A stretch of 32,000 nucleotides of DNA from an uncultured candidatus Brocadiaceae bacterium. GTDB lineage: Bacteria > Planctomycetota > Brocadiia > SM23-32. Below the pieces are notes generated by a model. It ran no database searches and was not told the DNA's origin. It saw nothing but the letters and a program-made list of their open reading frames with translations. The position numbers and the translations under genes were made by a program. Where the stretch lies: contig CAZZNQ010000005.1 in assembly GCA_964655775.1 (NCBI GenBank), positions 11,157-43,156 of the forward strand, in the 5' to 3' direction. Every line of letters begins with the position of its first letter. The stretch's first letter is position 1. This document shows, piece by piece, positions 3,701-19,388 of the stretch.

Positions 3701-3900
3701 TCCTCATCCCGATGGCCCTGTCGCTGGGATTCGGGATCGTGTTCGCCACGTGCATCACGCTGATGATCGTGCCGTCGCTGTACCTGATGGTGGAAGACGT
3801 GCGTGCGCTCGCCCGAGCGACGCGCAGGCTGCCGGAGGCCGTTTTCTCCGACGAACCCACGCCCACGGGCGAGGTCCGGGAGGAGCCTTCCACTACGTAG
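712..3900 (+). CDS. RND efflux transporter permease (AcrB/CzcA superfamily inner-membrane pump)
   Basis: 1062 aa with an N-terminal TM segment, two large periplasmic loops and two TM bundles. Contains typical RND strings (GIVVDDAIVVGENI, LSGVVVNDSLVMIDF, FRPIMLTTLTTFGGLAPM). Translationally coupled to the adaptor. No outer-membrane factor follows; the next gene is convergent. Confidence 0.95.
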   Translation: MTDRPDNNTHGPIAWMAGHSVAANLIMVACLLGGFLSLRNIKQEVFPNIEIDAVSIRVPYPGASPEEVESGIVLAIEEAVRGLDGVDEVTSVAGEGSGSVTVEVLLGEDVQQVAQDVQSEVDRITTFPEDAEEPRVAVVSHKREVLEVVLYGDAPEMVLHELAERVRDQLLQDPDITQVEVSGLPPLEIGIEVPEENLRRYGLTIDTIASRLRSASVDLPAGGVDTESGEVLVRVKERRDYGREFARVPIITTSDGSQVLLADIATINDSFQDTDRYSTYNGQPAVNLEVYRVGDQTPIQVSDAVRARLEEIKAELPPGISTSIEHDRSDIYRQRVELLLKNASIGLVLVLILLGVFLEARLAFWVMLGIPISFLGSFLLLPATGVTINMISLFAYIIALGIVVDDAIVVGENIYHYQQAGLPFARAAVRGAREVAMPVTFSILTNCAAFLPLYFIPGVMGKIFKMIPIVVCVVFIISLVESLFVLPAHLAHQRTGGRRGFSAWLHAKQRAFSDAFMHWVRDGYGPWLDFVLRHRYVTIAAALSVLAVLASYALSGRMGFELFPKVESDFSDAQAVLPYGSPVEKTEAVCRKLLAGAQTVIDEIGRDELVESVTSDVGIGGGHNCRVRVMLADAEVRDQIISTEEFTNRWRQAVGEVPGVEYMRFAADVGGPGGRGRPVTVELSHRDIEVLERASARLANSLSTYPIVKDVDDGFQPGKQQLDFAIKPEGRSLGLSANDVARQLRSAFYGSEVLRQQRGREEIKVMVRLPEHDRAREYTLESMMIRTPAGTFVPLPEVATVKRGRAHTTIDRRKGRRVISVSADVSPQSKAGEVLGDLRTTVMPTLTGQYPGLTYSFEGHQADIRESMGSLRVTFALALLAIYAMLAIPFRSYIQPLIVMMSIPFGVVGALLGHLIMGYDLSIMSMFGIVALSGVVVNDSLVMIDFANRRRREDDADPHDAIHSAGIQRFRPIMLTTLTTFGGLAPMIFETSRQARFLIPMALSLGFGIVFATCITLMIVPSLYLMVEDVRALARATRRLPEAVFSDEPTPTGEVREEPSTT

Positions 3901-5752: not shown

Positions 5753-7162
5753 TCACTCCGCCTGAGCCATCTCGTCAAGATAGGGCCGAATCTCCTCCCT
5801 GACCGCCTCCAACCTCGCGTCCACGTTCTCCCTGTCGGCCGGCTCCGGCAGATCGGATGCTGTGCGGTGAACCATACGGGCATGGCGCCAGACCGCGGCC
5901 CGCTGCTCGTCGGTGCGCACCTGGCCCGCAAGACGTTGCAGACCCTCCAGCAGACGGATTACGACCGCGGCGTTCCCCCGCGCATGCTGGCGGATCTGGT
6001 TGAAGGCCGCATTGCATACCCCGGCGAAATCCGTCTGATCCAGCACGAGCCGAAGGTTGCCATCGTCGTCGTAGTACACCGCAGGCGGCATGCGGCGTCT
6101 GGCGATCTCGCACAGGGCCGCGCTGAGTCGGTCGATGCAGGTCATGGCGGTGAACGGATCGTTAATGCCCGGCGAGAGCGCCCGTGTCGCGATCTCCACC
6201 AACTGCAGCATGACGAACTCCGGATCCTGGGTGGCCGTCCGTTCGCTGCCCAGGATGATCGATTCGCGGATCTCCTGCTTGGGCAGCGCGGCCCGCAGGT
6301 CGTGCCGCGTTGCCCCGCGGCTGTATGCTAACGCCTCACGCACGGCACTGACCGCCCGGTCCAGTTCCTCCCCCATCTCTTCCGGGCCGCAAACCTCCAC
6401 CAGCCGCTCTCCGCCCGCGACGAAATGCCCGGGCCGGTGCACGACATGCAGGATCACACCGAACTTAGCGGCAATGGCCAGCAGGCCGCGCGCATCCACC
6501 GCCTGGAGATAGCCGTCCCAGTCGGCGGTAACCGTGCCGCGCGCAGCCGGGAGGGACTCCGGAGCCTGCTCGGCCATCCTCCCCTCCTCGATGGACTCCG
6601 GGAAGAGGCGCTCGATCAGGTTTCCCAGCTCCTTCGAGACGGACGTCACCACATTCGGTGCCTGTATCGACCGCGCCGCGTGGTGGATGAAGTAGATCAG
6701 GAGCACGAAACTCACGCACGCCAACAGGAATCCGCCGAGCACGGTGATGTGCGGCAGCTTCTCCGGTCGTACGGCACCAACAATGCGCAACGTCACCAGG
6801 CAGTATAGGAATGTGGAGATGAACACGCCGAGGACGGCCTGGTTGGCGCGGTCGCGCATGAAGCTGCGCAAAAGCCGAGGCCCAAGCTGCGAGGCCGCCA
6901 GGGTCAGCGCCACCACCGTGATGGAGAACACGATGCTGAGCGCCGTCATAAGCGAGCCAATCAGCGCGATCAGCAGGCTGCGCACACCCTCGGCGTCACC
7001 GGCCCTCAGCCATCCCAGCGCATCGGACGGCGGAATATCGAGCCGGGCGTCCACAGCCGCCAGAACCAGGCACGCGGCCACCGAGATGAAAGACATTAGC
7101 AGCGGCAGGAACAGGAAACTGGTCCGCAGCAGGTCCCATTTGTTCTCCACCCATGTCTTCAC
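5753..7162 (-). CDS. DUF2254-family integral membrane protein (four N-terminal TM helices plus a soluble C-terminal domain)
   Basis: 469 aa. The GTG start at 7162 has GAGGAGG 7 nt upstream. Four TM segments are present, with the string QLGPRLLRSFMRDRANQAVLGVFISTFLY, which I recall as characteristic of DUF2254 (from memory, not searched). The start overlaps the ATPase stop (GTGA, 7159-7162). Confidence 0.8.
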   Translation of the reverse strand: MKTWVENKWDLLRTSFLFLPLLMSFISVAACLVLAAVDARLDIPPSDALGWLRAGDAEGVRSLLIALIGSLMTALSIVFSITVVALTLAASQLGPRLLRSFMRDRANQAVLGVFISTFLYCLVTLRIVGAVRPEKLPHITVLGGFLLACVSFVLLIYFIHHAARSIQAPNVVTSVSKELGNLIERLFPESIEEGRMAEQAPESLPAARGTVTADWDGYLQAVDARGLLAIAAKFGVILHVVHRPGHFVAGGERLVEVCGPEEMGEELDRAVSAVREALAYSRGATRHDLRAALPKQEIRESIILGSERTATQDPEFVMLQLVEIATRALSPGINDPFTAMTCIDRLSAALCEIARRRMPPAVYYDDDGNLRLVLDQTDFAGVCNAAFNQIRQHARGNAAVVIRLLEGLQRLAGQVRTDEQRAAVWRHARMVHRTASDLPEPADRENVDARLEAVREEIRPYLDEMAQAE

Positions 7163-9957
7163 GCCGTCGCCTCCTCAACTCCACGAGAGCGCGCGCGGCG
7201 CAGCGCCTTCAGCCCCTCCCAGCACCCGAGGAAGACCAGCGCCGCACCCCAGACGAAGAGCCAGTCGACCAGACCGATGGATGCGAACTCCAGGAAGCTG
7301 CTCACATACGGGGCATAAACGCCGATCAGCACCATCACGATCGACACCCCGATGGACGAAAGCAGGATCTTGTTTGTCAAGATGTTGCGGCTGAAGATCG
7401 TCCGGTACTGATAACGCCAGGACAGGATGTTGACGAACTGGCAGTAACCGATCGTAAGCCACGTCATAGTGCTGGCCCGCATGTAGGCGACGGTGCCGAC
7501 ATCTCCTTGAGTCAGAATACCCCCGTGCCGGAGCATGTAGAGTATGAAGTTGGCGACGGCCAGAATGCCGATCGTGGAGCCCAGGAACAGCACCTCTCCC
7601 CCGCTCACCGGCTGCAGAATGTGCTCGGACCGGCTGCGCGGCTGGCGTGTCATAACCCCGGGCCCGGGCGGGTCGAAGCACAGGAACGTCAGCGGCATGA
7701 TCTCCGCCAGAAGGTCCACCGCCAGAACCTGGATGGCCAGGATGGGGATAGCCATGTTGCCGATGGCGATTCCCACCAGACCCAAGAGCACGGCCACCAA
7801 CTCGGCTGTATTGGTCGTCAGGCTGGCCAGCACCACCTTCCGGATGTTGTTGTAGATGGTGCGCCCCTCCTCCACCGCGTGCACCAGCGTTGGGAAGCTG
7901 TCGTCCAGCAGCACCACCTCCGCGGCTTCCTTCGCGACGTCCGTGCCCGTCTGCCCCATTGCCACCCCGATGTGCGCGCGCTTCAGGGCGGGGGCATCGT
8001 TCACCCCGTCGCCCGTCACCGCCACCACCTGGTCCATGCGCTCCTCCAGCAAGGTGACCACGCGCAGCTTGTCCGCCGGGTCCACGCGCGAGAAGATCAG
8101 CGAATCGTGCTCTCGCATGGTCTCCACCAGTGAATCGTCGGAAAGGTCAGCCATTTCCTGCCCTCGGATCACGGGAAGCTCCTCTCCCTCGTGCGCAAGC
8201 CCGATCTCATGGGCGATGGCCTGGGCAGTGACCGCGTGGTCGCCGGTGATCATGTAGGTGCGGATGTGAGCGTCGTGGCACTCCTCCACCGCCTCGCGAA
8301 CGCCCTCGCGGGCGGGGTCGATGATGCCCACCAGCCCCAGGAATATCACGTCCTTCTCGACCTCCTCCTCCACGTAATCCTCGCCGGTCTCCTCCAGCGG
8401 ACGATATGCAATGGCCAGCACGCGAAGGGCACGTTCGGAGTACTCGCGGTTCACCAGCTGAACGGTCTTCCAGTCCTCGTCGGTGATCGGTTCCGCACCG
8501 CCGTCGCGGTAGATGTACTTGCTTATCTCCAAAAGTGCGTCGGTGGAGCCCTTCATCGTCAGAACGTGCCTGTCGCCGAAGTCGCGCACCGAGCTCATGC
8601 GCTTCCGCTCGCTGGTGAAGGGGAACTCCTGGATCTCGGGGTTCTCCTCGTCTTCGTTTTCCGCGCGGGTGCCGATCTTGGTGGACATGGTGATCAGCGC
8701 CGCCTCGGTGGGATCCCCCACCGGATACCAGTTCGGGTGATCATCGTCGGGCGGGTGGATCTCCGCGTTGGAGGCCATCGTCGCCGCGTCCATCATCACC
8801 TCGATCTCGTCGATCTGCTCTTGGCCAAGCGGGTCCTTGCCCTCCAGGAGGATCTCCCCTTCCGGCTCGTAGCCGATGCCGGTAAAGGTGTAGTGCCAGC
8901 CGTTGAACCACGCCGTCTTGACGGTCATCTCGTTCCGCGTGAGGGTGCCCGTCTTGTCCGTGCAGATCACGTTCGTGGACCCGAGGGTCTCCACCGAAGG
9001 CAGGCTCTTGACCACGGCGTTCTTCCCGGCCAGGCGGCGGCTCGCGGTGGACATGGCCACGGTGAGCTGCGCGGGCAGCGCCTGCGGCACGCAAGCGACG
9101 GCCACGCCCAGGGCGTAGGTTACGCTGACCAGCCAGCCCAGGCCCTGCCAGAGGGCCACGCCGAACAGGGCGACGCTGATGACGATGACAGCCGCCGTCA
9201 GACGCCTGGCCAGCAGGTCCAGTTCGTCCTGCAGCGGCGAGGCGACCTCGCTCGTCTCCTCGGTCATGGTGGCGATGCGGCCCAGCTCGGTGTCCATACC
9301 GGTCTTCACCACAACGCCGGTAGCCGTGCCACTCACCACCGTGGTGCCCACGAAAGCCATGTTGTCGCGGTCTCCCAGCACCAGGCTCCCGGAAAGCGCA
9401 TTGGTCTGCTTGTCCTGCGGCATGGATTCGCCGGTGAGGCTGAACTCGTTCGTGCGCAGATTGAACGACTCCATCAGCCGCAGGTCGGCGGGCACCTTAT
9501 CCCCTTCCTCGATCCGCACAACATCCCCGGGCACAAGCTGTCGCTGCGCGACCTCGGTGACGTCTCCGTCCCGCACCACGTCCGCCGGGGAGCGGATCAG
9601 TTCCCGCAGTTCCTCCACGATGCGGCTTGCCTTATGCTCCTGGATGAATCCGATCACGGCGTTCAGGATCACAATCAGGAACATCACGGAACCGTCCCGG
9701 AAGTTGGCCCATGAGCCCTCGACGGCCGCAATCACGTAGGAACCCAGCCCGGCGAAGATCAGCACAAGCACCAACAGGTCCTTGAACTGCGAGAGAAACA
9801 TCAGGAGCTTTGAGGGTGCCCCTGCGGTGACCAGCACGTTCTCACCGTGCTCTTCCCTGCGCGCCTCCGCTTCGTCCGCTGAAAGGCCCTCAACCGACGT
9901 GTCCAGGTCTTCCAACACCTCATCGACGGTCATCCGGTAGTATTCGGTCTCAGCCAT
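7159..9957 (-). CDS. P-type cation-transporting ATPase, P2-like architecture with non-canonical ion-site residues
   Basis: Contains DKTGTLT (ICTDKTGTLTRNEM), TGES (LTGESMP), MITGDH, GDGVNDAPALK and an N-terminal cation-ATPase motif (LSADEAEARREEHGENVL). I chose the ATG at 9957 (MAETEYYRMTVDEV) because GAGGA lies 4 nt upstream; the track start at 10041 adds 28 Arg-rich residues. Confidence 0.95.
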   Translation of the reverse strand: MAETEYYRMTVDEVLEDLDTSVEGLSADEAEARREEHGENVLVTAGAPSKLLMFLSQFKDLLVLVLIFAGLGSYVIAAVEGSWANFRDGSVMFLIVILNAVIGFIQEHKASRIVEELRELIRSPADVVRDGDVTEVAQRQLVPGDVVRIEEGDKVPADLRLMESFNLRTNEFSLTGESMPQDKQTNALSGSLVLGDRDNMAFVGTTVVSGTATGVVVKTGMDTELGRIATMTEETSEVASPLQDELDLLARRLTAAVIVISVALFGVALWQGLGWLVSVTYALGVAVACVPQALPAQLTVAMSTASRRLAGKNAVVKSLPSVETLGSTNVICTDKTGTLTRNEMTVKTAWFNGWHYTFTGIGYEPEGEILLEGKDPLGQEQIDEIEVMMDAATMASNAEIHPPDDDHPNWYPVGDPTEAALITMSTKIGTRAENEDEENPEIQEFPFTSERKRMSSVRDFGDRHVLTMKGSTDALLEISKYIYRDGGAEPITDEDWKTVQLVNREYSERALRVLAIAYRPLEETGEDYVEEEVEKDVIFLGLVGIIDPAREGVREAVEECHDAHIRTYMITGDHAVTAQAIAHEIGLAHEGEELPVIRGQEMADLSDDSLVETMREHDSLIFSRVDPADKLRVVTLLEERMDQVVAVTGDGVNDAPALKRAHIGVAMGQTGTDVAKEAAEVVLLDDSFPTLVHAVEEGRTIYNNIRKVVLASLTTNTAELVAVLLGLVGIAIGNMAIPILAIQVLAVDLLAEIMPLTFLCFDPPGPGVMTRQPRSRSEHILQPVSGGEVLFLGSTIGILAVANFILYMLRHGGILTQGDVGTVAYMRASTMTWLTIGYCQFVNILSWRYQYRTIFSRNILTNKILLSSIGVSIVMVLIGVYAPYVSSFLEFASIGLVDWLFVWGAALVFLGCWEGLKALRRARSRGVEEATA

Positions 9958-10395
9958 GTGTGTCCTCAAGAGAACCGGGCGCATGCAAGGGCCGCATTGC
10001 GTTGGTCGTCCAGACCGGCGGCCCGTTCGAAGTCTCCCCATTTTAGCGTCAAACGCCCCCCATCACACTGGAAGTCCCATAAAGGCGCTGCACCTCCTAA
10101 GACACAGTGCCGTGCGCGGCCAAAATAAGCCTTGCGGTTTCACGCGCGTTTGCGCTAAACTCCGGCATGCAGGCGGCGAGCGCCCGCCTGAGGCCAGTTT
10201 CTGGGAGGCGGCAAGGAGCATGCTTGACCGGCCACCATCGGGGCAGCAGATACCCGGCCCACTCCAGGCGCGTGCCCATTCCCCCGCACACGCGCACAGT
10301 CATCGCGCCTTCGCAATGCGCCATCCCGGCCGATTGCCTCCGGATCGGTCGCTTTATGAAGCCGCCGACACCACTGCTCTCCCCGGGGAATCAAC

Positions 10396-13300
10396 ATGAG
10401 AATCGAGAACAGAGTCCTTCTTCTGTGCATGTTGCTGGGAATCGGTTTCTGGGTGCTGGAGGGCCTCGTGGACTACGCGGTCTTTCATGAGGGACCTTTC
10501 TGGGGCACGATGATCACCGAAGTAGAATCCGCGGAGGTCTTCGACCGCGCCGCCGGCGTTGCAGCGTTCGTCGGCTTGGGGTTCGTCCTCTGGTGGATAG
10601 TGCGTCAGCGCCGACGCACCGAAGAGACTTTGGCCGAGCGCGTAAAGGAGCTAAGCTGCCTCTACGCAGTGAGTTCGCTGATAGAGAAGGGGGGCTCGGA
10701 TCTGCCCGCGGCCTTGGAGGGCGTAGTGCACGCCATCCCTGCCGGCTGGCAGCAGCCCGAAGCTATTTGCGCGCGGATCCGGCTGGATGGGCAGGAGTAT
10801 GTAAGCGACGGTTTCCGCGAGACGCAGTGGAAGCTGCAAGCACCGATCATTGTCAAGGAACATACCATCGGCAGCGTTGAGGTGTTCTGCATCGGCCCGA
10901 AGCCCGAGGAGGGCGAAGCCGTATTCCTCAACGAGGAGCGGCAGTTGCTGGACGAGATCGCCGAGCGAATCGGTCGCTTGATGGAGCGGTTGCGCGCATC
11001 CAGGGCGCTGCGCGACAGCGAAACGCGCTTCCGGAGCGCCGTGGTGATGGCGCCGGTACCCATCATGGTGCACGCCGAGGACGGCGAGGTTCTATCTCTG
11101 AGCCGGCGCTGGGAGACGATGACGGGATACACCCTCGGGGACATACCGACGGTAGATAAGTGGTGTCAGAAGGCCTACGGCGCCGACGCCGAGCGCATCA
11201 GACAACGCATCGGACAACTTTACGAGGAAGGTGATGGCGTGCATGATGCGGAGGTCACCGTCACCTGCTCGGACGGCTCAGATAGTACCTGGATGATCCG
11301 AACGTCCCTGCTGGGGCGACTGCCCGACGGAAGGGCGGCTGCCATCACGGTGGGCACTGACGTGACCGAGCGCCGACAGGGGGAACGCCGGATCGCCCAT
11401 CTCAACGGTGTGCTCAAGGCCATCCGCAACGTGAACCAGCTCATCGTGCGTGAGAAGGACAGAAGCGCTCTGCTGAGGCAGGCCTGCGAGTGCATGGTCG
11501 AGACCCGTGACGTCGACAGCGTGTGGATCGCGTTGTTTGACAAAGGTGACCTCACCGAGAGCGCCCAGGCCGGCCTGGGTGAAGCTTTTGACGAGCTTCG
11601 AAAGGAGATGGAAGCAGGCGATTTGCCGATATGCGTGCGGACGATAATGGCGGAAGGAGCCGACTTAGTGACCGGCAGCACGGACACTTGCGAAGGATGC
11701 CCGGTGGCAGGCGCATGCCCCGCCGCATCCGCTGTCATAGCGTTGGGGCACGCAGGCACTCGCTACGGCGTCCTGGCTGTGAACATCCCGTCCAGCGGGG
11801 AGCCGGACGAAGAGGAACTGTTCCTGCTGAAGGAACTGGCCGATGACATCGGCCTCGCCCTCCACAGCATCGAGTTGGAGCAGGAACGCGACCAGGCTGA
11901 TGAAGCACTCAGAGAAAGCGAAGAGAAGTACCGGATGCTGGCGCAGAACACGCTGGACTGCATCTGGACGCTGGACATGGACATGCGCTTCACCTACGTG
12001 AATCCTGCCGTCGAACGCATCTTCGGCTTCACACCCCAGGAGTTCATCGGCAGCCCCCTCAGCGACTACTGCACGCCCGAGCAATACGAACGGATGGCAG
12101 CCTTAGCCCAGGCGGAACTCGCCAAGCCGCCGCACGAGTCACGAATCATGTTCGAGGCATTTCTGCTCGACAAACAGGGCAAGGAGGTCCCGGTCGAGAT
12201 ATACGGCCGAGTCAACTACGACGACGATGGCCGGCCCGTCTCCATCCAGGGCGTCACGCGCGACGTGTCGGAGCGGTTCGAGATGCAGGAACGGCTGCGT
12301 CTGTCCCAACGCATGGAGGCCGTCGGCCAGCTCGCCGGTGGAATCGCCCACGACTTCAACAACATTCTCACCGGCATCATCGGCTACACCCAACTCATCC
12401 TCAACCAGACCGAGGAAGGCTCAGAGCAGCACGAAGACCTGCAGGAGGTGGAACACCTCGCGAAACGGGCCGCCGACCTGACACAGCAACTGCTCGCTTT
12501 CAGCCGCAAACAGGCCCTCGAACCGCGTGTGGTCAACATCAACTCCCTCATCGCGAACGTGACCAAGATGCTGGGACGCGTGCTGGGCGAGAACATCGAC
12601 CTGGAGTTCCATTCCGACCCGTCACTGTGGAACGTGCAGGTCGATCCGGGGCAAATCGAACAGGTGCTGATGAATCTGGCGGTGAACGCGCGGGACGCAA
12701 TGCCGGACGGCGGCAAGCTGACCATCGAGACTGCCAACGTGGAACTCGATGAGGAGTATGCACGGAACCACGCGGCGGTGGCACCTGGGCCACACGTGAT
12801 GATCGCCGTCTCCGACACCGGTGCGGGGATGGACGCCGAGACACGAGAGCGCATCTTCGAACCGTTCTTCACAACCAAGACCGCCGGCCGAGGAACCGGA
12901 CTGGGGCTCTCCACCGTTTACGGCATCGTCAAGCAACACGAGGGGAACATCTGGGTCTACAGCGAGCCCGGACAGGGAACGACGTTCAAGGTCTACTTCC
13001 CGCGCGTGGAAGCGGAAGTGGAGCCTGCCGATCTGCAGAAACCGGATGACCCTGGCTACGGGTCGGAGACCGTCCTCATCGTCGAGGACGAACCGGACGT
13101 GCTCAGTGTCGCCCGGCGCAGCCTGGAGCGACGGGGATTCCGGGTGATGGCCGCGAAGGACGCTTCCGAGGCCGAACGAATCATGGCCGAGAGAGCCGAC
13201 GAAATCGCGCTGCTGCTCACCGACGTTGTCCTGCCCGAGGTGAGCGGACGCGCGCTCTACGACGGACTCGCCGAGAAGTACCCGGAGCTGAAGGTCCTCT

Positions 13301-13428
13301 ACATGTCCGGCTACACGGGCAACGCCATCGTCCATCACGGAGTGCTCGACCGGGGGACAGCATTCATGCAGAAGCCGTTCACGCCTGACCGGATCGCCCG
13401 TCGCGTGCGCGAAGTGCTGGACTCCTGA
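10396..13428 (+). CDS. Hybrid sensor histidine kinase / response regulator (2 TM, unnamed N-terminal module, PAS, GAF-like, PAS, HisKA, HATPase_c, REC)
   Basis: 1010 aa. H-box AHDFNNILTGIIGY; N-box LMNLAVNARDAM; G-boxes DTGAGMD and GTGLGLS. Receiver domain shown by VLIVEDEPDVL ... LLLTDVVLP ... YMSGY ... KPF. PAS-type segments start near RFRSAVVMAPVPIMVH and KYRMLAQNTLDCIWTLD. Confidence 0.95.
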   Translation: MRIENRVLLLCMLLGIGFWVLEGLVDYAVFHEGPFWGTMITEVESAEVFDRAAGVAAFVGLGFVLWWIVRQRRRTEETLAERVKELSCLYAVSSLIEKGGSDLPAALEGVVHAIPAGWQQPEAICARIRLDGQEYVSDGFRETQWKLQAPIIVKEHTIGSVEVFCIGPKPEEGEAVFLNEERQLLDEIAERIGRLMERLRASRALRDSETRFRSAVVMAPVPIMVHAEDGEVLSLSRRWETMTGYTLGDIPTVDKWCQKAYGADAERIRQRIGQLYEEGDGVHDAEVTVTCSDGSDSTWMIRTSLLGRLPDGRAAAITVGTDVTERRQGERRIAHLNGVLKAIRNVNQLIVREKDRSALLRQACECMVETRDVDSVWIALFDKGDLTESAQAGLGEAFDELRKEMEAGDLPICVRTIMAEGADLVTGSTDTCEGCPVAGACPAASAVIALGHAGTRYGVLAVNIPSSGEPDEEELFLLKELADDIGLALHSIELEQERDQADEALRESEEKYRMLAQNTLDCIWTLDMDMRFTYVNPAVERIFGFTPQEFIGSPLSDYCTPEQYERMAALAQAELAKPPHESRIMFEAFLLDKQGKEVPVEIYGRVNYDDDGRPVSIQGVTRDVSERFEMQERLRLSQRMEAVGQLAGGIAHDFNNILTGIIGYTQLILNQTEEGSEQHEDLQEVEHLAKRAADLTQQLLAFSRKQALEPRVVNINSLIANVTKMLGRVLGENIDLEFHSDPSLWNVQVDPGQIEQVLMNLAVNARDAMPDGGKLTIETANVELDEEYARNHAAVAPGPHVMIAVSDTGAGMDAETRERIFEPFFTTKTAGRGTGLGLSTVYGIVKQHEGNIWVYSEPGQGTTFKVYFPRVEAEVEPADLQKPDDPGYGSETVLIVEDEPDVLSVARRSLERRGFRVMAAKDASEAERIMAERADEIALLLTDVVLPEVSGRALYDGLAEKYPELKVLYMSGYTGNAIVHHGVLDRGTAFMQKPFTPDRIARRVREVLDS

Positions 13429-13458: not shown

Positions 13459-14073
13459 CTACGCCCGCAACTTCGTCGTCGCTTCCGCCACACGCCGGCC
13501 CAGTGCCTCGGCGATTCTCAGATCCTCGTCGGTCGGCTCCAGGGAGTTGTCCGACCCCGCTACGGTCGACGGCCCGTACGGCGTTCCTCCCCTGCCGTCC
13601 GTGTGCAGCATTCCGTCCGTCGAATACGGCACGCCCACCACAATCATGCCCAGATGCAGCAGGGGCACCATCATCGTGAGCAGCGTCGTCTCCTGGCCGC
13701 CGTGCGTCGTGGCGGTCGACGTGAAGACGCCGGTCGGCTTGCCCTCCATGGCGCCGTCCAGCCACAGGCCGGCCAGGCCGTCGATCACGCGCTTCATCTG
13801 CGCGATCATGTTGCCGAACCTCGTCGGCGTCCCCCAGATGACGGCATCGGCCTCGCGCAGGTCGTCAGCCGTGCACTCCGGCACGTCCTTCTGCCGCTCC
13901 CAGACGGGCGCGGCGTGCTCGCTCTCCATGATCGCTTCGAGGTCCTCCGGGAACTCGGGCGCGCGACGGAACACCACCTCGACTCCCTCAACGCCCTCCG
14001 CACCGCGCTCCACCGCCCGCGCCATCTTCAGCACGTGCCCGTACTTCGAGTAATAGACAATCAGCACCTTCAT
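13459..14073 (-). CDS. wrbA: NAD(P)H:quinone oxidoreductase, WrbA type (flavodoxin-like fold)
   Basis: MKVLIVYYSKYGHVLKMARAVERGAEGV... with GTPTRFGNMIAQMKRVIDGL and GVFTSTATTHGGQETT, matching WrbA signatures. The ATG at 14073 has AAGGGGGG upstream. The track ORF extends 60 codons further through Arg/Gly-rich sequence, which I judge non-coding. Confidence 0.9.
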   Translation of the reverse strand: MKVLIVYYSKYGHVLKMARAVERGAEGVEGVEVVFRRAPEFPEDLEAIMESEHAAPVWERQKDVPECTADDLREADAVIWGTPTRFGNMIAQMKRVIDGLAGLWLDGAMEGKPTGVFTSTATTHGGQETTLLTMMVPLLHLGMIVVGVPYSTDGMLHTDGRGGTPYGPSTVAGSDNSLEPTDEDLRIAEALGRRVAEATTKLRA

Positions 14074-14232
14074 TGCACTGCCCCCCTTCATCTGCCAAGA
14101 GACTCCGGACACGGCGGCCGCCCCCGGCCGCCTGCAACCGATGATACTGCCTCCGCCCGTGCCCAGGCAAATCGCGTCGCCGCGCCGGCACACGCCGCCG
14201 CGGAACCCGCACGGATTTCGATCCATCAGCAT

Positions 14233-14261
14233 TTGACGCCTCCGAGAAAGCACAGTAGGAT
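14233..14261 (+). promoter_or_regulatory. Candidate sigma70-type promoter for the arsR-family operon (TTGACG-17 nt-TAGGAT)
   Basis: TTGACG at 14233-14238, a 17-nt spacer, then TAGGAT at 14256-14261. This implies a very short leader before the ATG at 14281. It sits in the only AT-rich patch of the wrbA/arsR intergenic region. Confidence 0.4.
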
Positions 14262-14277
14262 ATTAGTGGATACTAAT
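14262..14277. promoter_or_regulatory. Candidate operator: perfect 6-4-6 palindrome ATTAGT-GGAT-ACTAAT
   Basis: Seen directly at 14262-14277, between the putative -10 box and the arsR ATG, the position expected for an autorepressor site. It can also be read as an imperfect direct repeat, GGATATTAGT / GGATACTAAT (14258-14277). Confidence 0.4.
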
Positions 14278-14280
14278 GCT

Positions 14281-14598
14281 ATGGAAGCCAGCGACCCCAG
14301 AGACATCCGGCGGATGACTAAGGTGCTCTCCTCGGAGGTGCGCGTCCGCATACTGCAGCTCCTCAAGGGCCGCGCGCTGTGCGTCAACGCCCTGGCGTCG
14401 CGGCTGGACGTTACGCAGGGCGCCGTGTCGCAGCACTTGCGCATCATGCGGGACGCGGACCTCGTCATCGATGAGAAGCGCGGATCCTTCGTCCACTACC
14501 GTCTGAACAAAGGAACTCTTTCCGCATGGCAAGAGGCGCTGGGCCGGCTTCTGGACTCCTCGAACTCACCACCCGTTGACTCCGAAGGAGCATGGTAA
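14281..14598 (+). CDS. ArsR/SmtB-family winged-helix transcriptional repressor
   Basis: 105 aa. VLSSEVRVRILQLLKGRALCVNALASRLDVTQGAVSQHLRIMRDADLVIDEKRGSFVHYRL is a typical ArsR helix-turn-helix plus wing. Only one Cys (C34) lies where ArsR has its CVC metalloid site. It is the last 105 codons of track ORF 13603..14598. Confidence 0.9.
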   Translation: MEASDPRDIRRMTKVLSSEVRVRILQLLKGRALCVNALASRLDVTQGAVSQHLRIMRDADLVIDEKRGSFVHYRLNKGTLSAWQEALGRLLDSSNSPPVDSEGAW

Positions 14599-14744
14599 TG
14601 TGTTGCTGCAAGGACAAGGAAACCTCGTGCAGGAAGCCGGAGAACCTGAAGGGCAAGCCCGGGGACTGCTCCGCCGACCAGATTGAGAAATGCCACGGCA
14701 GCGCCAAGGAGCACCCCTGTGTGCGCACCACCGACCGAGGATAG
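14598..14744 (+). CDS. Unannotated 48-aa Cys/His-rich, Lys-rich microprotein (putative metal- or thiol-reactive binding peptide)
   Basis: The ATG at 14598 overlaps the arsR stop (TAATG). AAGGAG (14585-14590) lies 7 nt upstream. Product: MCCCKDKETSCRKPENLKGKPGDCSADQIEKCHGSAKEHPCVRTTDRG, with 7 Cys, 2 His and 7 Lys. By hand count, 40 of 47 codons after the ATG end in G/C. Stop TAG at 14742-14744. Below the length cut-off of the ORF track. Confidence 0.65.
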   Translation: MCCCKDKETSCRKPENLKGKPGDCSADQIEKCHGSAKEHPCVRTTDRG

Positions 14745-15744
14745 CGGCCCAACCCCCACCGCGGGCGCCGCAATCGAGGTCGAGCGGCTGGCGAAGAGTT
14801 TCGGCGACGTCCGAGCCGTGTCGGGTGTACACTTCCAGGTGCGCGAAGGGGAGCTCTTCGGCTTCCTCGGGCCGAACGGCGCCGGGAAGACCACCACCAT
14901 CAACATGCTCACCGGCCTGGCCCGGCCCGATGCGGGAACGATCCGCTTCTTCGAGCGGGACTACACGACGAACGTGAAGCGCGCACAGCACCTGATGGGC
15001 GTGGTGCCGGACGAGAGCAACCTGTACCCCGAACTCGACGGCTTCGAGAACCTCCGCTTCTGCGCGTCACTCTACGGCATGCGCCGACGCGAACGCGAAG
15101 CCCGCGCGCGCGAGCTGCTGGACACTTTCGGCCTGGCGGACGTGGGCGGGCGGAAGTTCGCCGCCTATTCGCGTGGCATGAAGCGCAAGCTGGCCATCGC
15201 CGCCGGCATCATCCACCACCCGCGCATCCTCTTCCTGGACGAGCCGACCACGGGCATCGACGTCGCCAGCGCGCGCCAGATACGCCGCCTGATCGCCGGG
15301 ATGAACGATGCCGGCACCAGCGTCTTCCTCACCACGCATTACATCGAGGAAGCCGAGCGCCTCTGCGACCGCATAGCCTTCATCGTGGAGGGGCGTGTCG
15401 TGCGGATCGACACCGTTGCGGACCTGGTCAGGGACGTGCAGGGGCGCCACGTCGTACAGCTCGCCCTCGGCGCTGAGGCCGGCTCCCTGCTGGATCCGCT
15501 GCGTGCCGAGTTCCCGAAAGTCGAGTTCGAGCCGCTCGCCGGCAACAGCCTGCGCGCCCACACGGAGAAGCCGCTTCCGCTGGCGCCCCTCGTGCGGTTC
15601 TTCGAGGAGCAGGGCGTGGACGTCACCGAGGCGCGCGCCATCCGACCGTCGCTGGAGGACGTGTTCGTCCGGGTCACCGGCGTCGCCCTGGAGCGCATGC
15701 GCAAGGAGAAGGAAGGCGGCAAGCAGAAAGGGGGCGGGAAGTGA
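14719..15744 (+). CDS. ABC transporter ATP-binding protein (DrrA/NatA-like, partner of an ABC-2 permease)
   Basis: Walker A GPNGAGKTT, signature SRGMKRKL, Walker B ILFLDEPTTGID, and a C-terminal extension typical of ABC-2-type ATPases. I chose GTG 14719 because AAGGAG (14706-14711) lies 7 nt upstream. The track start at 14683 is a TTG with no SD. No start codon exists downstream of the microORF stop and ahead of the conserved core. Confidence 0.9.
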   Translation: MCAPPTEDSGPTPTAGAAIEVERLAKSFGDVRAVSGVHFQVREGELFGFLGPNGAGKTTTINMLTGLARPDAGTIRFFERDYTTNVKRAQHLMGVVPDESNLYPELDGFENLRFCASLYGMRRREREARARELLDTFGLADVGGRKFAAYSRGMKRKLAIAAGIIHHPRILFLDEPTTGIDVASARQIRRLIAGMNDAGTSVFLTTHYIEEAERLCDRIAFIVEGRVVRIDTVADLVRDVQGRHVVQLALGAEAGSLLDPLRAEFPKVEFEPLAGNSLRAHTEKPLPLAPLVRFFEEQGVDVTEARAIRPSLEDVFVRVTGVALERMRKEKEGGKQKGGGK

Positions 15745-16478
15745 AGTCCTGGATCGCCTTCTGGAGCATCCTCAAGAAGGACATGCGCACCTATTACCTT
15801 AAGCCGCCGAACCTGAGCTGGGGCATCATCTTCCCGCTGGCGTGGACGCTGATGTTTTTCATCAAGTCCGGCAGCGGTTTCGGCGACGTGCGCGGCATCC
15901 TGCCCGGAGTCATGGCGCTCTCCATCCTCTTCGGCACCACCTCCATGCTGGCCGTGACGGTGACGTTCGAGAAGAAGGGGCGGTCGTTCGAGCGCCTGCT
16001 TCTGGCGCCGATGCCGTTGGAGTTGCTGATGCTTGCCAAGACGTCGGGGGCGGTGATTTTTGGCGTCGCGAACGCGTTCGTGCCGGTGCTGATGGCCGCG
16101 TTCCTCACGGATCTATCCGGCGTGGACTGGCTGACACTCGTGCCCGCCATCGTGCTCATCGCGATCAGCTCGACGTTCCTGGGCCTGCTGATCGCGGTGT
16201 CCGTCAGCGAGGTCTTCGAGGCGCAGACGTTCTCGAACTTCTTCCGCTTCCCGATGCTGTTCCTGTGCGGCCTGTTCTTCCCGCTGGAGGCACTGCCGGG
16301 CGTGCTCCGGCCGGCCAGCTATCTCCTGCCCCTCACCTACGGTGCAGACCTTCTTCACGGTGCAGTCAATCGGGCGGCCGTGAGGCCCGTGCCGCTGAAC
16401 TTCGCGCTGCTGGCCGCCTTCTGCGTCGTCCTGTTCCTGGTAAGCCTGCGCAACGTCAACCGCAAGTGGATCCTGTAG
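15741..16478 (+). CDS. ABC-2 type transporter permease (6 TM)
   Basis: 245 aa and hydrophobic throughout, with ABC-2 topology. The GTG start overlaps the ATPase stop (GTGA, 15741-15744), with AAGGGGG upstream. Confidence 0.9.
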   Translation: MKSWIAFWSILKKDMRTYYLKPPNLSWGIIFPLAWTLMFFIKSGSGFGDVRGILPGVMALSILFGTTSMLAVTVTFEKKGRSFERLLLAPMPLELLMLAKTSGAVIFGVANAFVPVLMAAFLTDLSGVDWLTLVPAIVLIAISSTFLGLLIAVSVSEVFEAQTFSNFFRFPMLFLCGLFFPLEALPGVLRPASYLLPLTYGADLLHGAVNRAAVRPVPLNFALLAAFCVVLFLVSLRNVNRKWIL

Positions 16479-16616
16479 CGCCCTGCCCTCAGGCCCAGCC
16501 GGTGCAGTGTGCGGCGAGGGCCGCCCAATTCTCTTAGCGGAACCCGCCCTTATCCGTTACCATGCAGTCGTGGAGGCCGTCCCTCCGGACGGTGACTCAG
16601 GGAGAGGGAGGGACAT

Positions 16617-19235
16617 ATGCACGTTGCACGTCGGTGGGGATTCCTGTGGTTGTGCACCTTCTGTCTGCTGCTGCCCGGCTGCGGGGAGAACATCCATTCT
16701 GCGTCCCTCCGGGGAGACGTTGAGGAGGTGCGCCTGCTCCTGAGGCAGGGAGCCGACCCCGATGCCCGGCGAGTGGCCGCCATGCCGGGCCACGATGAGG
16801 CCTACACTCCCCTGATCTACGCCGCCATCGGCGGCCATCCGGACGTCATCCGCCTCCTCTTGAAACACGGTGCCGATCCCCATCTTGCCGACTCCCACGG
16901 CTACACGGCCCTGCACCACGCCGCCTGGGAAGGCCACGAGGCCGCCGCCCGCGCCCTTCTGGCCCACGGCGTGGACGTCGATACAGGGAACGATTTCGGT
17001 GAGACGCCCCTCCACCACGTCACCAACAAGACCGCCGACCGAACCCGCGAACACCTGGGCGTCCTCCGGCTGCTGCTCGAGAAGGACGCCGACGTGAGCG
17101 CCACCGACCAGGACGGGCAGACTGCCCTGCACAACGCGGTGGAGCACGGCTGGCAGGCGGGCGCCGAGATGCTGCTCTCCCACGGCGCGGACGTCGCGGC
17201 GGCCGACGGCAGCGGGGAGACGCCCCTCCGGGAAGCCGTCCGTCGCGGCGACGCCCGGATGATGGACACTCTCCTGGAGCACGGAGCGAGGCACGATGCC
17301 TTCACCGCCGCTGCCCTGGGGAAAGCCGACCTGCTGGCCGACATGCTCGAAGACGACCCCGGCCTCGTTCGCAGCCGGGACGAGGCGAGCGGAGACACGC
17401 TCCTGCACCTGGCCGCCGCCCGCGGCAACCACGCAACGGTGGAGCTTCTGCTCGCGTCCGGCGCGGACGTCGACGCGGCGAACAAGTGGGGGGAAACGGC
17501 GCTCTCGGCGGCATCCCGGCGGGGGCACACGCAGGCCGAATCGCTGCTGCTGGCGAGCGGGGCCGACCCCGGCGACCGGGTTGACCTCACCCGGAGGACG
17601 GTTTCCCGGCCGGGCCTGAGGCTGCGCCATCCGGGTCCGGCGCACTGGATCGTCTCCACCGAGACCTGGCAGCTCTACGCTGCCGTTCCGGAACCCGAAA
17701 TCGAAGCCGAATACGCCGTCTGGGACATCGGCATGGTCGGGGCAGACAGGAACCGAGGGGGTGCCGCATCCGCCGGGGGAGCCGACGCCGAGGACCTCAT
17801 CGACGCCGTCCGGGTGGTGATCGCCAAAGAGCCCTCCCGGACCGTGGCGGAGCTGCGCAGACTTCGCGTGCCCTTCGAGCGCGACGACCTGGAGCGCGGC
17901 TACACTCGCCGACGGTTCCGGTTTCCGCAGGCGGGCCGGTACTGGCTCCGATGCACCTTCCACGATTCGGACGACCGTCCGGTGGCCGAAAGCCTCTGGG
18001 CCGTGACGTCGAGCGACAACTACCTGGCCGGGCTGGGCTGGGCTTTCGACCCTTCCGAGCTGGGGGAGATGGTATTCATCGAGGGAGGCAGCTTCCGGAT
18101 GGGGGCGCCGTCTTCTGCCCGGGCCAGGGAGGGGGAGCGCCCCCCGCACAGGGTGCGCGTGGACGACTTCTGGATCGGCAAGTATCCGGTTGCCGCCCGG
18201 GAGTTCTCGGAGTTCCTCAACGATCGCGGCAACCCGGACCATCGCTACCTGCGCGGGGACGCGTGGCGCCTCGCCTTCATGAAAGGGCATTTTGAGGAGG
18301 ACCTCGCGGCGGGGCGTGACGACCCGGAGAGGATCCAGAGACATATCGAGGACCTCGATGCCTTCTTTGCTCCCGTCGTCCAGTGGCCTCCCCGGCCCGA
18401 GATGGCCGCAAAGCACGATTTCGTCTACGAAGAGATGCTGGGCGCCCAGGGATCGATGGTTCCCGGTTGGTGCAATGTCGTTCTGGACCCCCGGACGGGC
18501 CTCTACCGTCCGCGGGGCGAACTGGACTTCTGTCCCGCCCATCGCGTCACGTGGTTCGGGGCGGTGGAATACTGCCGCTGGCTGAGCGAGCGCACGGGCC
18601 GCAGCTACCGCCTGCCCACCGAGGCCGAGTGGGAATACGCCGCGCGGGGGCGCGAGGGGCGGTCGCAGCCATGGGGCTTTCGGGCGCCTTTCGGCAAGGG
18701 CAAGGTGCCGTGGAGCTCGCTGTTCGGCGTTTTCGACAGGCAGATGGGCGTCTACCTGAACTACAATCACATCAACGTGGGATCGTTCCCGTACGGCGAT
18801 ACGCCGGAGGGCGTCGCGGACATGGTGGGCTATGTGCCGCAGTGGTGCAGCGACGCCTACTCCCGGGATTACTACAGACGCTCGCCGGTGGACAATCCCA
18901 CCGGCCCGGAGGTGCCCGAGGGGGAGCGAGATACCGTGCGGAGGTCTTTGAGGGGTGAAGGCTGGGGAACCGGAAGCTGGCTGAAGACGGAATACGTGGT
19001 CGCGCCCGCCTGGGCTCGGGCTGCGGTACCTCCGGCTTACCTGACGGACTATGGATTTCGGGTGGTGATGGAACCCGTGCACGGCGAGAAGGGAGGGACG
19101 CGTTCGTCGCCCAGCGCCTCCGGAACCGGAAACCAGGGAGCGGTCATCCTGGGAGCGACGGCGTCTGTGATGCTGACTCTCCTGGTGTTTGCCCTCTATC
19201 GCGCGCGGATTGAGCAAGCGGGCAGGACCAGGTAG
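16617..19235 (+). CDS. Envelope protein: signal peptide/possible lipobox, ~8-9 ankyrin repeats, linker domain, FGE-sulfatase-fold domain, C-terminal TM anchor
   Basis: GGGAGG lies 5 nt upstream of the ATG. N-terminus MHVARRWGFLWLCTFCLLLPGCGEN. Ankyrin consensus recurs (G-TPLH/TALH..A...GH......LL..GADV). FGE-sulfatase strings: FIEGGSFRMGAP, HRVRVDDFWIGKYPV, YRLPTEAEWEYAARG, GFRVV. C-terminal hydrophobic stretch AVILGATASVMLTLLVFALY followed by RARIEQAGRTR. The full-length antisense ORF 16557..19244 is shadow sequence. Confidence 0.85.
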   Translation: MHVARRWGFLWLCTFCLLLPGCGENIHSASLRGDVEEVRLLLRQGADPDARRVAAMPGHDEAYTPLIYAAIGGHPDVIRLLLKHGADPHLADSHGYTALHHAAWEGHEAAARALLAHGVDVDTGNDFGETPLHHVTNKTADRTREHLGVLRLLLEKDADVSATDQDGQTALHNAVEHGWQAGAEMLLSHGADVAAADGSGETPLREAVRRGDARMMDTLLEHGARHDAFTAAALGKADLLADMLEDDPGLVRSRDEASGDTLLHLAAARGNHATVELLLASGADVDAANKWGETALSAASRRGHTQAESLLLASGADPGDRVDLTRRTVSRPGLRLRHPGPAHWIVSTETWQLYAAVPEPEIEAEYAVWDIGMVGADRNRGGAASAGGADAEDLIDAVRVVIAKEPSRTVAELRRLRVPFERDDLERGYTRRRFRFPQAGRYWLRCTFHDSDDRPVAESLWAVTSSDNYLAGLGWAFDPSELGEMVFIEGGSFRMGAPSSARAREGERPPHRVRVDDFWIGKYPVAAREFSEFLNDRGNPDHRYLRGDAWRLAFMKGHFEEDLAAGRDDPERIQRHIEDLDAFFAPVVQWPPRPEMAAKHDFVYEEMLGAQGSMVPGWCNVVLDPRTGLYRPRGELDFCPAHRVTWFGAVEYCRWLSERTGRSYRLPTEAEWEYAARGREGRSQPWGFRAPFGKGKVPWSSLFGVFDRQMGVYLNYNHINVGSFPYGDTPEGVADMVGYVPQWCSDAYSRDYYRRSPVDNPTGPEVPEGERDTVRRSLRGEGWGTGSWLKTEYVVAPAWARAAVPPAYLTDYGFRVVMEPVHGEKGGTRSSPSASGTGNQGAVILGATASVMLTLLVFALYRARIEQAGRTR

Positions 19236-19388
19236 CAGCTTCATTTTGGATCTTGACTCTTATGGCCCATCCGCCCACAGGCTAGCAGACCGTGCTCGCC
19301 CTTCCGCGAAGGGGTACGCGATGCACCGTAGTAGCCGGGACACGCGGACGGGCGGCGCACGCGCTGACGCGGGCGCCACGGCGAGCGC

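Follow-up and report, generated by a model that had tools for sequence, protein, structure and literature searches.

The window analysed here is the whole stretch of 32,000 nucleotides (nt) from contig CAZZNQ010000005.1 (positions 11,157 to 43,156 of the forward strand) of the assembly GCA_964655775.1 of an uncultured candidatus Brocadiaceae bacterium, and the element under study in it is a short open reading frame (ORF) of 48 codons, called the microORF below, that lies between an arsR gene and the genes of an ATP-binding cassette (ABC) exporter. We propose, with somewhat more confidence than doubt, that the microORF peptide is a detached sensory or co-regulatory module of the upstream ArsR, supplied to the repressor in trans. 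The features of this operon, with positions counted from the first nucleotide of the window and protein lengths in amino acids (aa), are the following.

14233-14261, forward strand: sigma-70-like promoter (TTGACG, 17 nt, TAGGAT), a consensus match with a presumed function
14262-14277, no strand assigned: putative ArsR operator, the perfect palindrome ATTAGTGGATACTAAT with the core TTAG-N6-CTAA, between the -10 box and the arsR ATG
14281-14598, forward strand: arsR, encoding a 105-aa ArsR/SmtB winged-helix repressor, with a very short leader and no Shine-Dalgarno site
14585-14590, forward strand: Shine-Dalgarno site AAGGAG of the microORF, within the 3' end of arsR, read directly from the sequence
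14598-14744, forward strand: microORF, encoding the 48-aa protein MCCCKDKETSCRKPENLKGKPGDCSADQIEKCHGSAKEHPCVRTTDRG with one C-x12-C-x7-CH-x5-H-x-C module
14706-14711, forward strand: Shine-Dalgarno site AAGGAG that serves the ABC ATPase, 7 nt before GTG 14719 and within the 3' tail of the microORF, which is variable
14719-15744, forward strand: ABC transporter ATP-binding protein (DrrA-like), 341 aa, overlapping the microORF by 26 nt
15741-16478, forward strand: ABC-2 type permease (Pfam ABC2_membrane, 4.3e-26), its start overlapping the ATPase stop by 4 nt

The protein MCCCKDKETSCRKPENLKGKPGDCSADQIEKCHGSAKEHPCVRTTDRG is the product of the forward-strand frame from ATG 14598 to TAG 14744. All the signals that the original prediction had read from the letters hold on recount: the AAGGAG at 14585-14590 stands 7 nt 5' of the ATG; the arsR stop TAA (14596-14598) gives its last A to the microORF ATG, making the claimed TAATG overlap; of the 47 codons that follow the ATG, 40 have G or C in the third position; the peptide contains 7 Cys, 2 His and 7 Lys; and the Shine-Dalgarno site and the GTG start of the ATPase lie inside the microORF 3' end, the AAGGAG at 14706-14711 preceding GTG 14719 by 7 nt. 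The GC content at third codon positions is 0.86 in the microORF and 0.79-0.91 in the neighbouring genes. The ORF is not hidden, as had been supposed, for the identical 48-aa protein is already called, unnamed, on a public NCBI contig, on which the 105-aa ArsR and the 341-aa ABC ATPase from GTG 14719 are also called, both unnamed. An alternative in-frame ATG is present at 14592, and the start at 14598 is favoured because the homologues begin with MC and because of the spacing from the Shine-Dalgarno site.

It is noted that the DNA has 65% GC and that 68 ORFs of at least 30 aa are found within 7 kb of the window. At this composition an ORF of 48 codons is unremarkable, and therefore the case for the microORF rests on comparative evidence. 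In codon alignments of single-module members of the family described below, the ratio of nonsynonymous to synonymous substitution rates (dN/dS), a test that had been suggested along with the prediction, has a median of 0.26 over 663 pairs and ranges from 0.12 to 0.47 in the 12 listed pairs that involve the window peptide. The Shine-Dalgarno core at -18 to -4 is kept in 80 of 82 unique related loci, despite its position inside the arsR coding sequence, and the microORF frame is intact in the recovered loci. Judged by these comparisons, the microORF is a real gene under selection, and the claim of a translated, selected gene coupled to arsR is borne out by the homologues, the dN/dS and the kept Shine-Dalgarno site together.

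By contrast, one could suppose that the microORF is an untranslated chance ORF, of which GC-rich DNA such as this offers plenty, or that it is part of a longer leader of the ATPase from TTG 14683, a codon that is indeed in frame with the ATPase and that the original prediction had named as a possible start. This supposition is inconsistent with the frame-specific conservation seen in a family of about 2,000 clusters, with the dN/dS and the Shine-Dalgarno conservation just given, and with the recurrence of the microORF sequence as a protein domain of fused ArsRs. As for the leader, homologues of the ATPase align only from residue 18 of the form that begins at GTG 14719, no Shine-Dalgarno site is present at TTG 14683, and between GTG 14719 and the conserved core of the ATPase there is no further in-frame start codon. 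As far as comparative data allow, we regard this explanation as effectively excluded; it is the least probable of all those considered here.

The family itself is large. A word-indexed search of 5.8 billion proteins returned five homologues that are 59-70% identical to the peptide (E 3.5e-22 to 5.9e-9), a HMMER profile scan of 1.84 billion cluster representatives gave 352 matches at E <= 1e-3 and 91 at E <= 1e-10, and a broader profile matched 1,996 clusters at 90% identity, across which the source names are all 'hypothetical protein' and none has a Pfam domain. No match to the microORF peptide was obtained at E <= 1 in the Pfam and NCBIfam scans, at E <= 10 in a PDB sequence search with a profile of 73 family sequences, or at E <= 0.001 in a Foldseek comparison of the peptide model with the PDB; a tblastn search of the plasmid collection with the peptide also gave no match. 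The statement that the peptide has no nameable family and does not resemble SmtA or BmtA is thus in keeping with the empty domain, sequence and fold searches.

What the members have in common is the module. In the window peptide it consists of Cys11, Cys24, Cys32, His33, His39 and Cys41, besides which there are the N-terminal Cys2-4, and between the first two module Cys lies KPENLKGKP, an instance of the family pattern K-P-x-x-L-K-G-x-P. Among the six closest members C11, K13, P14, N16-P21, D23, C24, Q28, C32, H33, G34, H39 and C41 are invariant, and among 73 diverse members C11, P14, L17, P21, C24, Q28, C32, H33, G34, H39 and C41 are each kept at 90% or more. The C-x12-C-x7-CH-x5-H-x-C spacing is fixed in 435-447 of the approximately 460 module copies (about 95%) in the 355 family proteins examined, and identity over the whole module is 45-70% across phyla. 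Members with one module have 40-55 aa and tandem members with two modules have 75-81 aa. Most family members begin with MC, with only Cys2 widely kept, and the N-terminal CCC that the original prediction had stressed is variable; the wider claim of a Cys/His-rich peptide is upheld. Two side observations concern the module in other settings. In the 124-aa protein P0151 a His/Cys-rich N-terminal stretch (HDHHGHH...CCC...CHHHGH) is followed by a predicted coiled segment and a C-terminal module, and in loci L079:722-1198 and L087:5004-5543 the module is N-terminally fused to a carboxymuconolactone-decarboxylase/AhpD-like (CMD/AhpD-like) domain (PF02627, 6e-16 and 3e-12), which makes this a second fusion partner in addition to ArsR.

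With its rigid spacing and its invariant Lys/Pro segment, the module has the look of a well-defined site for a metal or cofactor that also offers a surface for interaction, unlike a thiolate array of the metallothionein type. The AlphaFold model of the peptide, computed with the 73-sequence alignment, has a predicted local distance difference test score (pLDDT) of 66 and a single short helix at residues 26-33, and permits no fold assignment. In the model of a fused ArsR-module protein the winged helix-turn-helix (wHTH) part has a pLDDT above 90 and the module is low, with a range of 57-70 over the models. The low score of the module would fit a fold that depends on a metal or cofactor, with a shallow alignment as a possible alternative cause.

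We now consider the regulator next to which the peptide is encoded. The window ArsR matches Pfam HTH_5 (PF01022, 8e-14) and NCBIfam HTH_metalloreg (NF033788, 78 bits against a cutoff of 55), and the nearest solved structures, at E of about 1e-8, are an ArsR-family regulator (8qkf) and SmtB (1r1t, 9e-9); by these matches it is a bona fide ArsR/SmtB winged helix-turn-helix protein. The partner arsRs in related loci are of the LCVGAL...GAVSQHL...KRGxFVHYRL type. The canonical inducer sites of the family, described in part in PMC11672702, are alpha3 (CxC(x2)C), alpha3N (N-terminal Cys/His with an alpha3 Cys) and alpha5 (DxH...HxxE/H). By inspection, GSFVHYRLNKGTLSAWQEALGRLL of the window ArsR has no alpha5 pattern, its alpha3 has no CxC(x2)C arsenite site and no conserved Cys pair, and its N-terminus has no Cys or His, so that the N-terminal ligands of an alpha3N site are missing. 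On this inspection the window ArsR lacks a canonical inducer site of its own. Its sole Cys is Cys34 (ALCVNAL), which is also the only conserved Cys (98%) among 90 partner and fused ArsRs, in which conserved His occurs only in the recognition helix (SQHL) and the wing (HY). Cys34 corresponds to the Cys of the LCVG motif, which in SmtB and CadC forms part of the alpha3N site, and because of this equivalence it would be an obvious residue with which the module could build a joint ligand site.

A repressor of this type and the module are, in many genomes, parts of one chain. Fusions were first met among the matches of the representative search, namely P0098 (151 aa) and P0056 (216 aa, with two modules), and a search with P0098 returned dozens of ArsR clusters, with lengths of 147-167 aa and 196 aa, in which 90-100% of the fusion is covered. 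In total there are at least 75 clusters of ArsRs of 140-170 aa with a C-terminal module, besides forms with two modules (196-216 aa). The sources are JGI, ENA, NCBI and Logan, with many of the fusions on several contigs, and the lineages are Desulfobacca, Syntrophobacterales, Thermodesulfobacteriota, Poribacteria, Lindowbacteria and Syntrophorhabdaceae. In the alignment of 75 fusions the ArsR alpha3 C32, the junction C109, and C128, H137 and H143 are invariant, and the linker C98, M108, C115, C136 and C145 are kept at 90% or more. One fused gene, P0284, is intact on three independent contigs and lies directly 5' of an ABC ATPase gene and an ABC-2 permease gene, the products of which are 44% and 41% identical to those of the window, followed by OEP, MFP and MacB genes; upstream of P0284 stands the TTAG-N6-CTAA palindrome that the window operon also has. 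Because the fusion heads the orthologous pair of genes, the window operon can be read as the split form of an operon made of an arsR-module fusion, an ABC ATPase and an ABC-2 permease.

Between the fused and the separate forms there are intermediate arrangements. The arsR and peptide ORFs touch or overlap in 55 of 76 loci. At 44 unique loci (L001, L003, L008-L019 and others) arsR runs 43-52 nt into the peptide ORF, the peptide being in the -1 frame, and ends at a TGA that is formed by the conserved Leu-Lys codons CTG AAG of the peptide; through this dual-frame overlap ArsR acquires a basic tail (KCAAAM-RKKAA-SRKT type). The window arsR ends before that point, with the 1-nt TAATG overlap, and in other loci the two genes are 30-180 nt apart. 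A frame change of a single nucleotide is enough to turn one of these states, fused, overlapping or separate, into another, which indicates that one functional unit has been split and joined repeatedly. Programmed -1 frameshifting between arsR and the peptide ORF was also considered, in view of the great regularity of the 43-52 nt overlap, and provisionally rejected, as canonical slippery heptamers are present in only 8 of the 44 loci and the window overlap is just 1 nt. Note also that fused genes keep an internal AAGGAGG with an ATG at the junction (as at L088:6231-6245), and that most of the 75 fusions have Met as the junction residue, a few having Leu, Ile or Val instead; by internal initiation, fused genes could yield a free module alongside the fusion.

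The neighbourhood of the separate peptide gene was compared over 80 genome loci, from a scan of one genome per species. The loci were retrieved with patterns from KPENLKGK-type members, and the synteny fractions describe that part of the family; the ORFs of the loci were called by a simple greedy procedure. All 80 loci are from metagenome-assembled genomes, with the best relatives in Planctomycetota/Phycisphaerae, and their lineages are Phycisphaerae and other Planctomycetota, Brocadiia, Bipolaricaulota, Aegiribacteria, Hydrogenedentota, Desulfobacterota, WOR-3, Thermotoga and Clostridiales. The recurring neighbours are as follows, the ABC counts being tblastn matches of more than 45 bits within 3.5 kb, with a few distant ATPases included.

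Related arsR directly upstream on the same strand (39-80% identical by tblastn, in many phyla): 67 of 80 loci
ABC ATPase as a downstream neighbour, in most cases together with an ABC-2 permease: about 50 of 80 loci
Class I S-adenosylmethionine (SAM) methyltransferase (about 215 aa), encoded between peptide and ATPase: 26 of 80 loci
DsrE-like protein of 106 aa: 10 of 80 loci
arsR-peptide pair followed by only unrelated genes: 27 of 80 loci

In the last group the followers include a sulfatase, an aminotransferase, a HicA toxin and a Calx-beta giant protein, and an exporter is absent from 30 of the 80 loci altogether. Where the permease follows the peptide, it is in many loci 63-82% identical to the window permease. 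From these frequencies the constant partner is ArsR and the exporter is a frequent, non-obligatory cargo, so that the earlier description of a peptide chained to an exporter has to be amended. The Cys spacing and the arsR synteny, on the conservation of which the original prediction had staked itself in advance, are both conserved. Methyltransferase-bearing operons are found, for example, at L016:5269-6284, L019:5222-5884, L023, L030, L057 and L083; the window has neither a methyltransferase nor a DsrE-like gene. The methyltransferase matches only the generic SAM-binding part of the ArsM and DVU_1556 models, far below their cutoffs, and therefore arsenic cannot be claimed as the inducer, nor is any other ligand assignable.

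The position of a short Cys-rich ORF directly 5' of an ABC-2 exporter, and the SAM methyltransferase gene that adjoins the peptide gene in the 26 relatives, might bring to mind the precursor of a secreted or modified peptide, similar to a bacteriocin or to another ribosomally synthesized and post-translationally modified peptide, which the transporter would export. It would then be expected that the peptide has a leader and a hypervariable core, but no leader/core organisation is apparent and the module is conserved over its whole length across phyla, at the identities given above. Moreover, no radical-SAM, lanthionine, cyclodehydratase or protease gene is present among the scanned neighbours in the window and the related loci, the module is fused to a cytoplasmic DNA-binding protein, and 30 of the 80 loci have no exporter. 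We hold this explanation to be very improbable and, on the comparative evidence, effectively excluded.

A further explanation, which is in fact a variant of the proposed sensory module, is that the module holds an oxygen- or redox-labile iron-sulfur (Fe-S) cluster and that ArsR and the peptide form a redox or oxygen sensor. All 80 loci are from mainly anaerobic lineages, and within about 40 residues the module offers four to five Cys and two His, which would be able to hold a cluster. The context is in part redox-linked, with the CMD/AhpD-like fusions, the DsrE-like proteins, a rubredoxin-flavoprotein and the WrbA gene that is divergent from the window arsR. However, the peptide has no similarity to known Fe-S domain families, and the commonest cargo, an exporter and a SAM methyltransferase, fits detoxification better than redox defence; from sequence alone, moreover, a Zn site and an Fe-S site look the same. 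A cluster of this kind is, in our estimate, improbable.

Upstream of arsR, the promoter and the palindrome make up a compact control region. Two matches to the promoter consensus were found in the region, compared with 0.2 expected, and ATTAGTGGATACTAAT is the only TTAG-N6-CTAA in the 32 kb window, compared with 0.02 expected. The strict TTAG-N6-CTAA occurs in 18 of 72 unique arsR upstream regions, where about 0.003 would be expected per region, and a further 25 of the 72 regions have looser variants, in both cases at the same position. The whole arrangement, TTGAC-17-TAnnnT with TTAG-N6-CTAA, recurs 2-12 nt before the arsR ATG in related loci (L005-L017, L020, L037, L055, L088 and others), and at L088 the palindrome also precedes the fused arsR-module gene. 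This position is typical for an autoregulatory ArsR operator, and the palindrome is a putative binding site of the window ArsR. The arsR mRNA is nearly leaderless and has no Shine-Dalgarno site, and the Shine-Dalgarno site of the peptide is perfect.

This last point bears on the most serious competitor of the sensory module, namely that the peptide is an ArsR-controlled buffer or chaperone for a metal or metalloid, with a role similar to that of metallothionein, CopZ or ArsD, which sequesters the metal or hands it to the exporter. A strong Shine-Dalgarno site on the peptide behind an almost leaderless arsR is what would be expected for such a product, and so is the occurrence of the peptide as the sole gene behind arsR in the 27 loci, as for a regulated product. 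The tandem members are common, P0151 couples the module to a His/Cys-rich stretch, and the surroundings are rich in efflux genes, with ABC genes in about 50 of the 80 loci and RND, MFP, MacB and Metal_resist genes elsewhere. By contrast, at least 75 clusters fuse the module to the repressor and none fuses it to a transporter; ArsR is constant and the downstream transporters vary; the rigid spacing and the KPENLKGKP invariant in close relatives imply a defined fold or interface and not a thiolate sponge; and there is no similarity to the SmtA, HMA or ArsD families. We regard a buffer or chaperone as rather unlikely, and note that it does not exclude the sensory module: both would hold if the peptide, in the manner of CopZ, donated metal to the repressor.

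Returning to the sensory module, what the genomes display is tight linkage of the peptide to this ArsR subfamily and, in many relatives, fusion to that same subfamily in genes that head the same operon. Several points weigh against our proposal. Physical contact between the peptide and ArsR is something that we infer, and fusion is not decisive about it, as regulators also become fused to proteins that merely cooperate with them. In 13 of the 80 loci no arsR is adjacent; in several Brocadiia loci of this kind a two-module peptide gene follows an AcrB/CzcA-type RND pump gene (L052:303-3380, L065:1399-4509, L077:1352-4429), after which come the methyltransferase, the ABC ATPase and the ABC-2 permease. 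The fusions to CMD/AhpD-like domains mean that the module is not exclusively an ArsR domain. The linker Cys98, which is near-invariant in the fusions, is missing from the window ArsR. Two-module tandems make up 158 of the 355 family members, which resembles the capacity expansion of metal-binding proteins. Finally, since the peptide has a strong Shine-Dalgarno site and arsR has none, the peptide may be in large excess over the repressor, and such an excess would suit a buffer or chaperone better than a stoichiometric subunit.

Based on our proposal, the operon would work in the following way, in which we presume that ArsR binds the operator, what kind of ligand is involved and in which direction the effect goes. 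A dimer of ArsR would bind the palindrome that overlaps the promoter and would repress the genes of arsR, the peptide, the ABC ATPase and the ABC-2 permease. The peptide, a small cytoplasmic Cys/His protein in this proposal, would be translated from its own strong Shine-Dalgarno site, coupled to the termination of arsR translation, and would form a metal or cofactor site from Cys11, Cys24, Cys32, His33, His39 and Cys41, with Cys2, which may be completed by Cys34 of ArsR. On binding or modification of this site by the inducer, the interaction between the peptide and ArsR would be altered, ArsR would leave the DNA and the exporter would be made. In relatives carrying them, the methyltransferase and the DsrE-like protein would be co-induced. 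As inducer we would consider a metal or metalloid of thiophilic character, a reactive sulfur species, or a change of redox state that affects an Fe-S or Zn-thiolate site.

The proposed arrangement can be compared with several known systems. The N-terminal arm of CadC (alpha3N site) and the C-terminal Cys95/96/102 of Acidithiobacillus ArsR are inducer ligands placed on terminal extensions. Both proteins are winged-helix ArsR repressors with sensing thiolates outside the core, as in the fusions described here, which consist of a wHTH and a Cys-rich C-terminus. Extensions of the core fold are recognised in the ArsR family (PMC11672702, section 3.2.2). The difference is that the extension here forms a discrete module, about 32 residues long, that can be duplicated, has a fixed spacing and has no Pfam or NCBIfam model, and that in the window it is separate. 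The hgcAB-linked ArsR2 of Pseudodesulfovibrio is different again, with an internal four-Cys site.

For a peptide acting in trans, the closest functional analogy is the CopY-CopZ system of Enterococcus hirae (copYZAB), in which CopZ delivers metal to the repressor, and in which a small Cys-containing metal-binding protein is likewise co-transcribed with a repressor and an exporter. CopZ, however, has the HMA ferredoxin-like fold with MxCxxC and CopY is of the BlaI/MecI type, and the window peptide gives no Pfam HMA match; moreover, CopZ is not known to be fused to CopY, whereas the module here is often fused to ArsR. ArsD of arsRDABC is a thioredoxin-fold protein of about 120 aa that is a chaperone to the ArsAB pump and a weak trans-acting repressor. 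It is, as here, a small Cys-bearing protein encoded right after arsR, but the window peptide has no Pfam ArsD match and the pump is an ABC-2 exporter, not ArsAB. Neither in Pfam nor in the Foldseek comparison was there a match that would place the peptide with HMA proteins (MxCxxC) or with ArsD (thioredoxin-like, Cys12/13/18).

The original prediction had compared the locus with SmtB and SmtA. The likeness is that an ArsR-family repressor goes with a small Cys/His-rich protein, and the LCVG motif is common to both repressors. In that system, however, smtA is divergent and pure cargo, whereas the module here is co-translated with the repressor or fused to it; the module also has far fewer Cys per site than SmtA, with a rigid spacing and the invariant KPENLKGKP, and the peptide does not match the Metallothio_Pro profile (Cys9His2 pattern) in the Pfam/NCBIfam scans at E <= 1. 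Given the ArsR fusions and the rigid spacing, a repressor with its own detached sensory domain is a more apt picture than a repressor with a metal sponge. Of the idea of a metallothionein with an exporter, what stands is the ArsR-coupled Cys/His-rich peptide; the exporter is not the constant partner, and the site is rigid and not a Cys array.

In the remainder of the window several genes accompany the operon. The ATPase that follows the microORF matches Pfam ABC_tran (1.2e-30) and the NCBIfam drrA subfamily (285 bits, under the cutoff of 312). Divergent from arsR, at 13459-14073 on the reverse strand, is a gene for a WrbA-type flavodoxin-like NAD(P)H:quinone oxidoreductase (Pfam FMN_red), with a promoter-like site at 14141-14170 on the same strand. 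Downstream, at 16617-19235 on the forward strand, is a gene for an 872-aa protein with N-terminal ankyrin repeats and an FGE-sulfatase (SUMF1-like) domain; the 895-aa mirror ORF opposite to it (16557-19244, reverse strand) is probably a high-GC artefact. Further upstream lie an RND efflux pump (712-3900, forward strand), a type II P-type cation ATPase (7159-10041, reverse strand) and a GAF-PAS hybrid histidine kinase with a receiver domain (10396-13428, forward strand), and a GH2 gene is also part of the window content. This gene content, taken with the best relatives, suggests a genome of the Planctomycetota (Phycisphaerae-like). These upstream neighbours, rich in transport and sensing functions, could belong to the same stress response as the arsR operon.

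ArsR/SmtB is the largest family of bacterial sensors of metals, metalloids and reactive sulfur, and to our knowledge the inducer site lies within the repressor chain in every characterised case. Our literature search found no description of the module or of a trans-encoded sensory part of ArsR, an absence that is not proof, and the consulted passages of a 2024 metallostasis review list no trans-encoded ArsR sensor. What we regard as new is the modular Cys/His domain of this ArsR/SmtB regulator, which a separate gene can also encode. More tentatively, and with somewhat more doubt than confidence, we suggest that this may be the first two-piece sensor of the ArsR family. In it the repressor would lack an inducer site, and a peptide of 40-80 aa with five Cys and two His, translated separately, would supply that site in trans, perhaps with Cys34. 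The system would have switched repeatedly among fused, overlapping and separate forms by 1-nt changes, and would constitute a new and widespread sensory domain of anaerobes that controls ABC-2 exporters and SAM methyltransferases.

The locus points to a large subfamily, of about 2,000 clusters in many phyla of anaerobes, in which the proposed sensing unit is small and modular and is a domain, a tandem pair or a free peptide. If the proposal is true, a new sensory domain and a split-sensor architecture would be added to the ArsR family. The hypothesis is directly testable, as it involves two small proteins and a 16-bp operator. It would also provide a handle on a detoxification operon, made of an ABC-2 exporter and often a SAM methyltransferase and a DsrE-like protein, that is common among the Planctomycetota, Bipolaricaulota and Desulfobacterota of sediments, and it would mean that genes of 40-50 aa can be essential halves of regulators.

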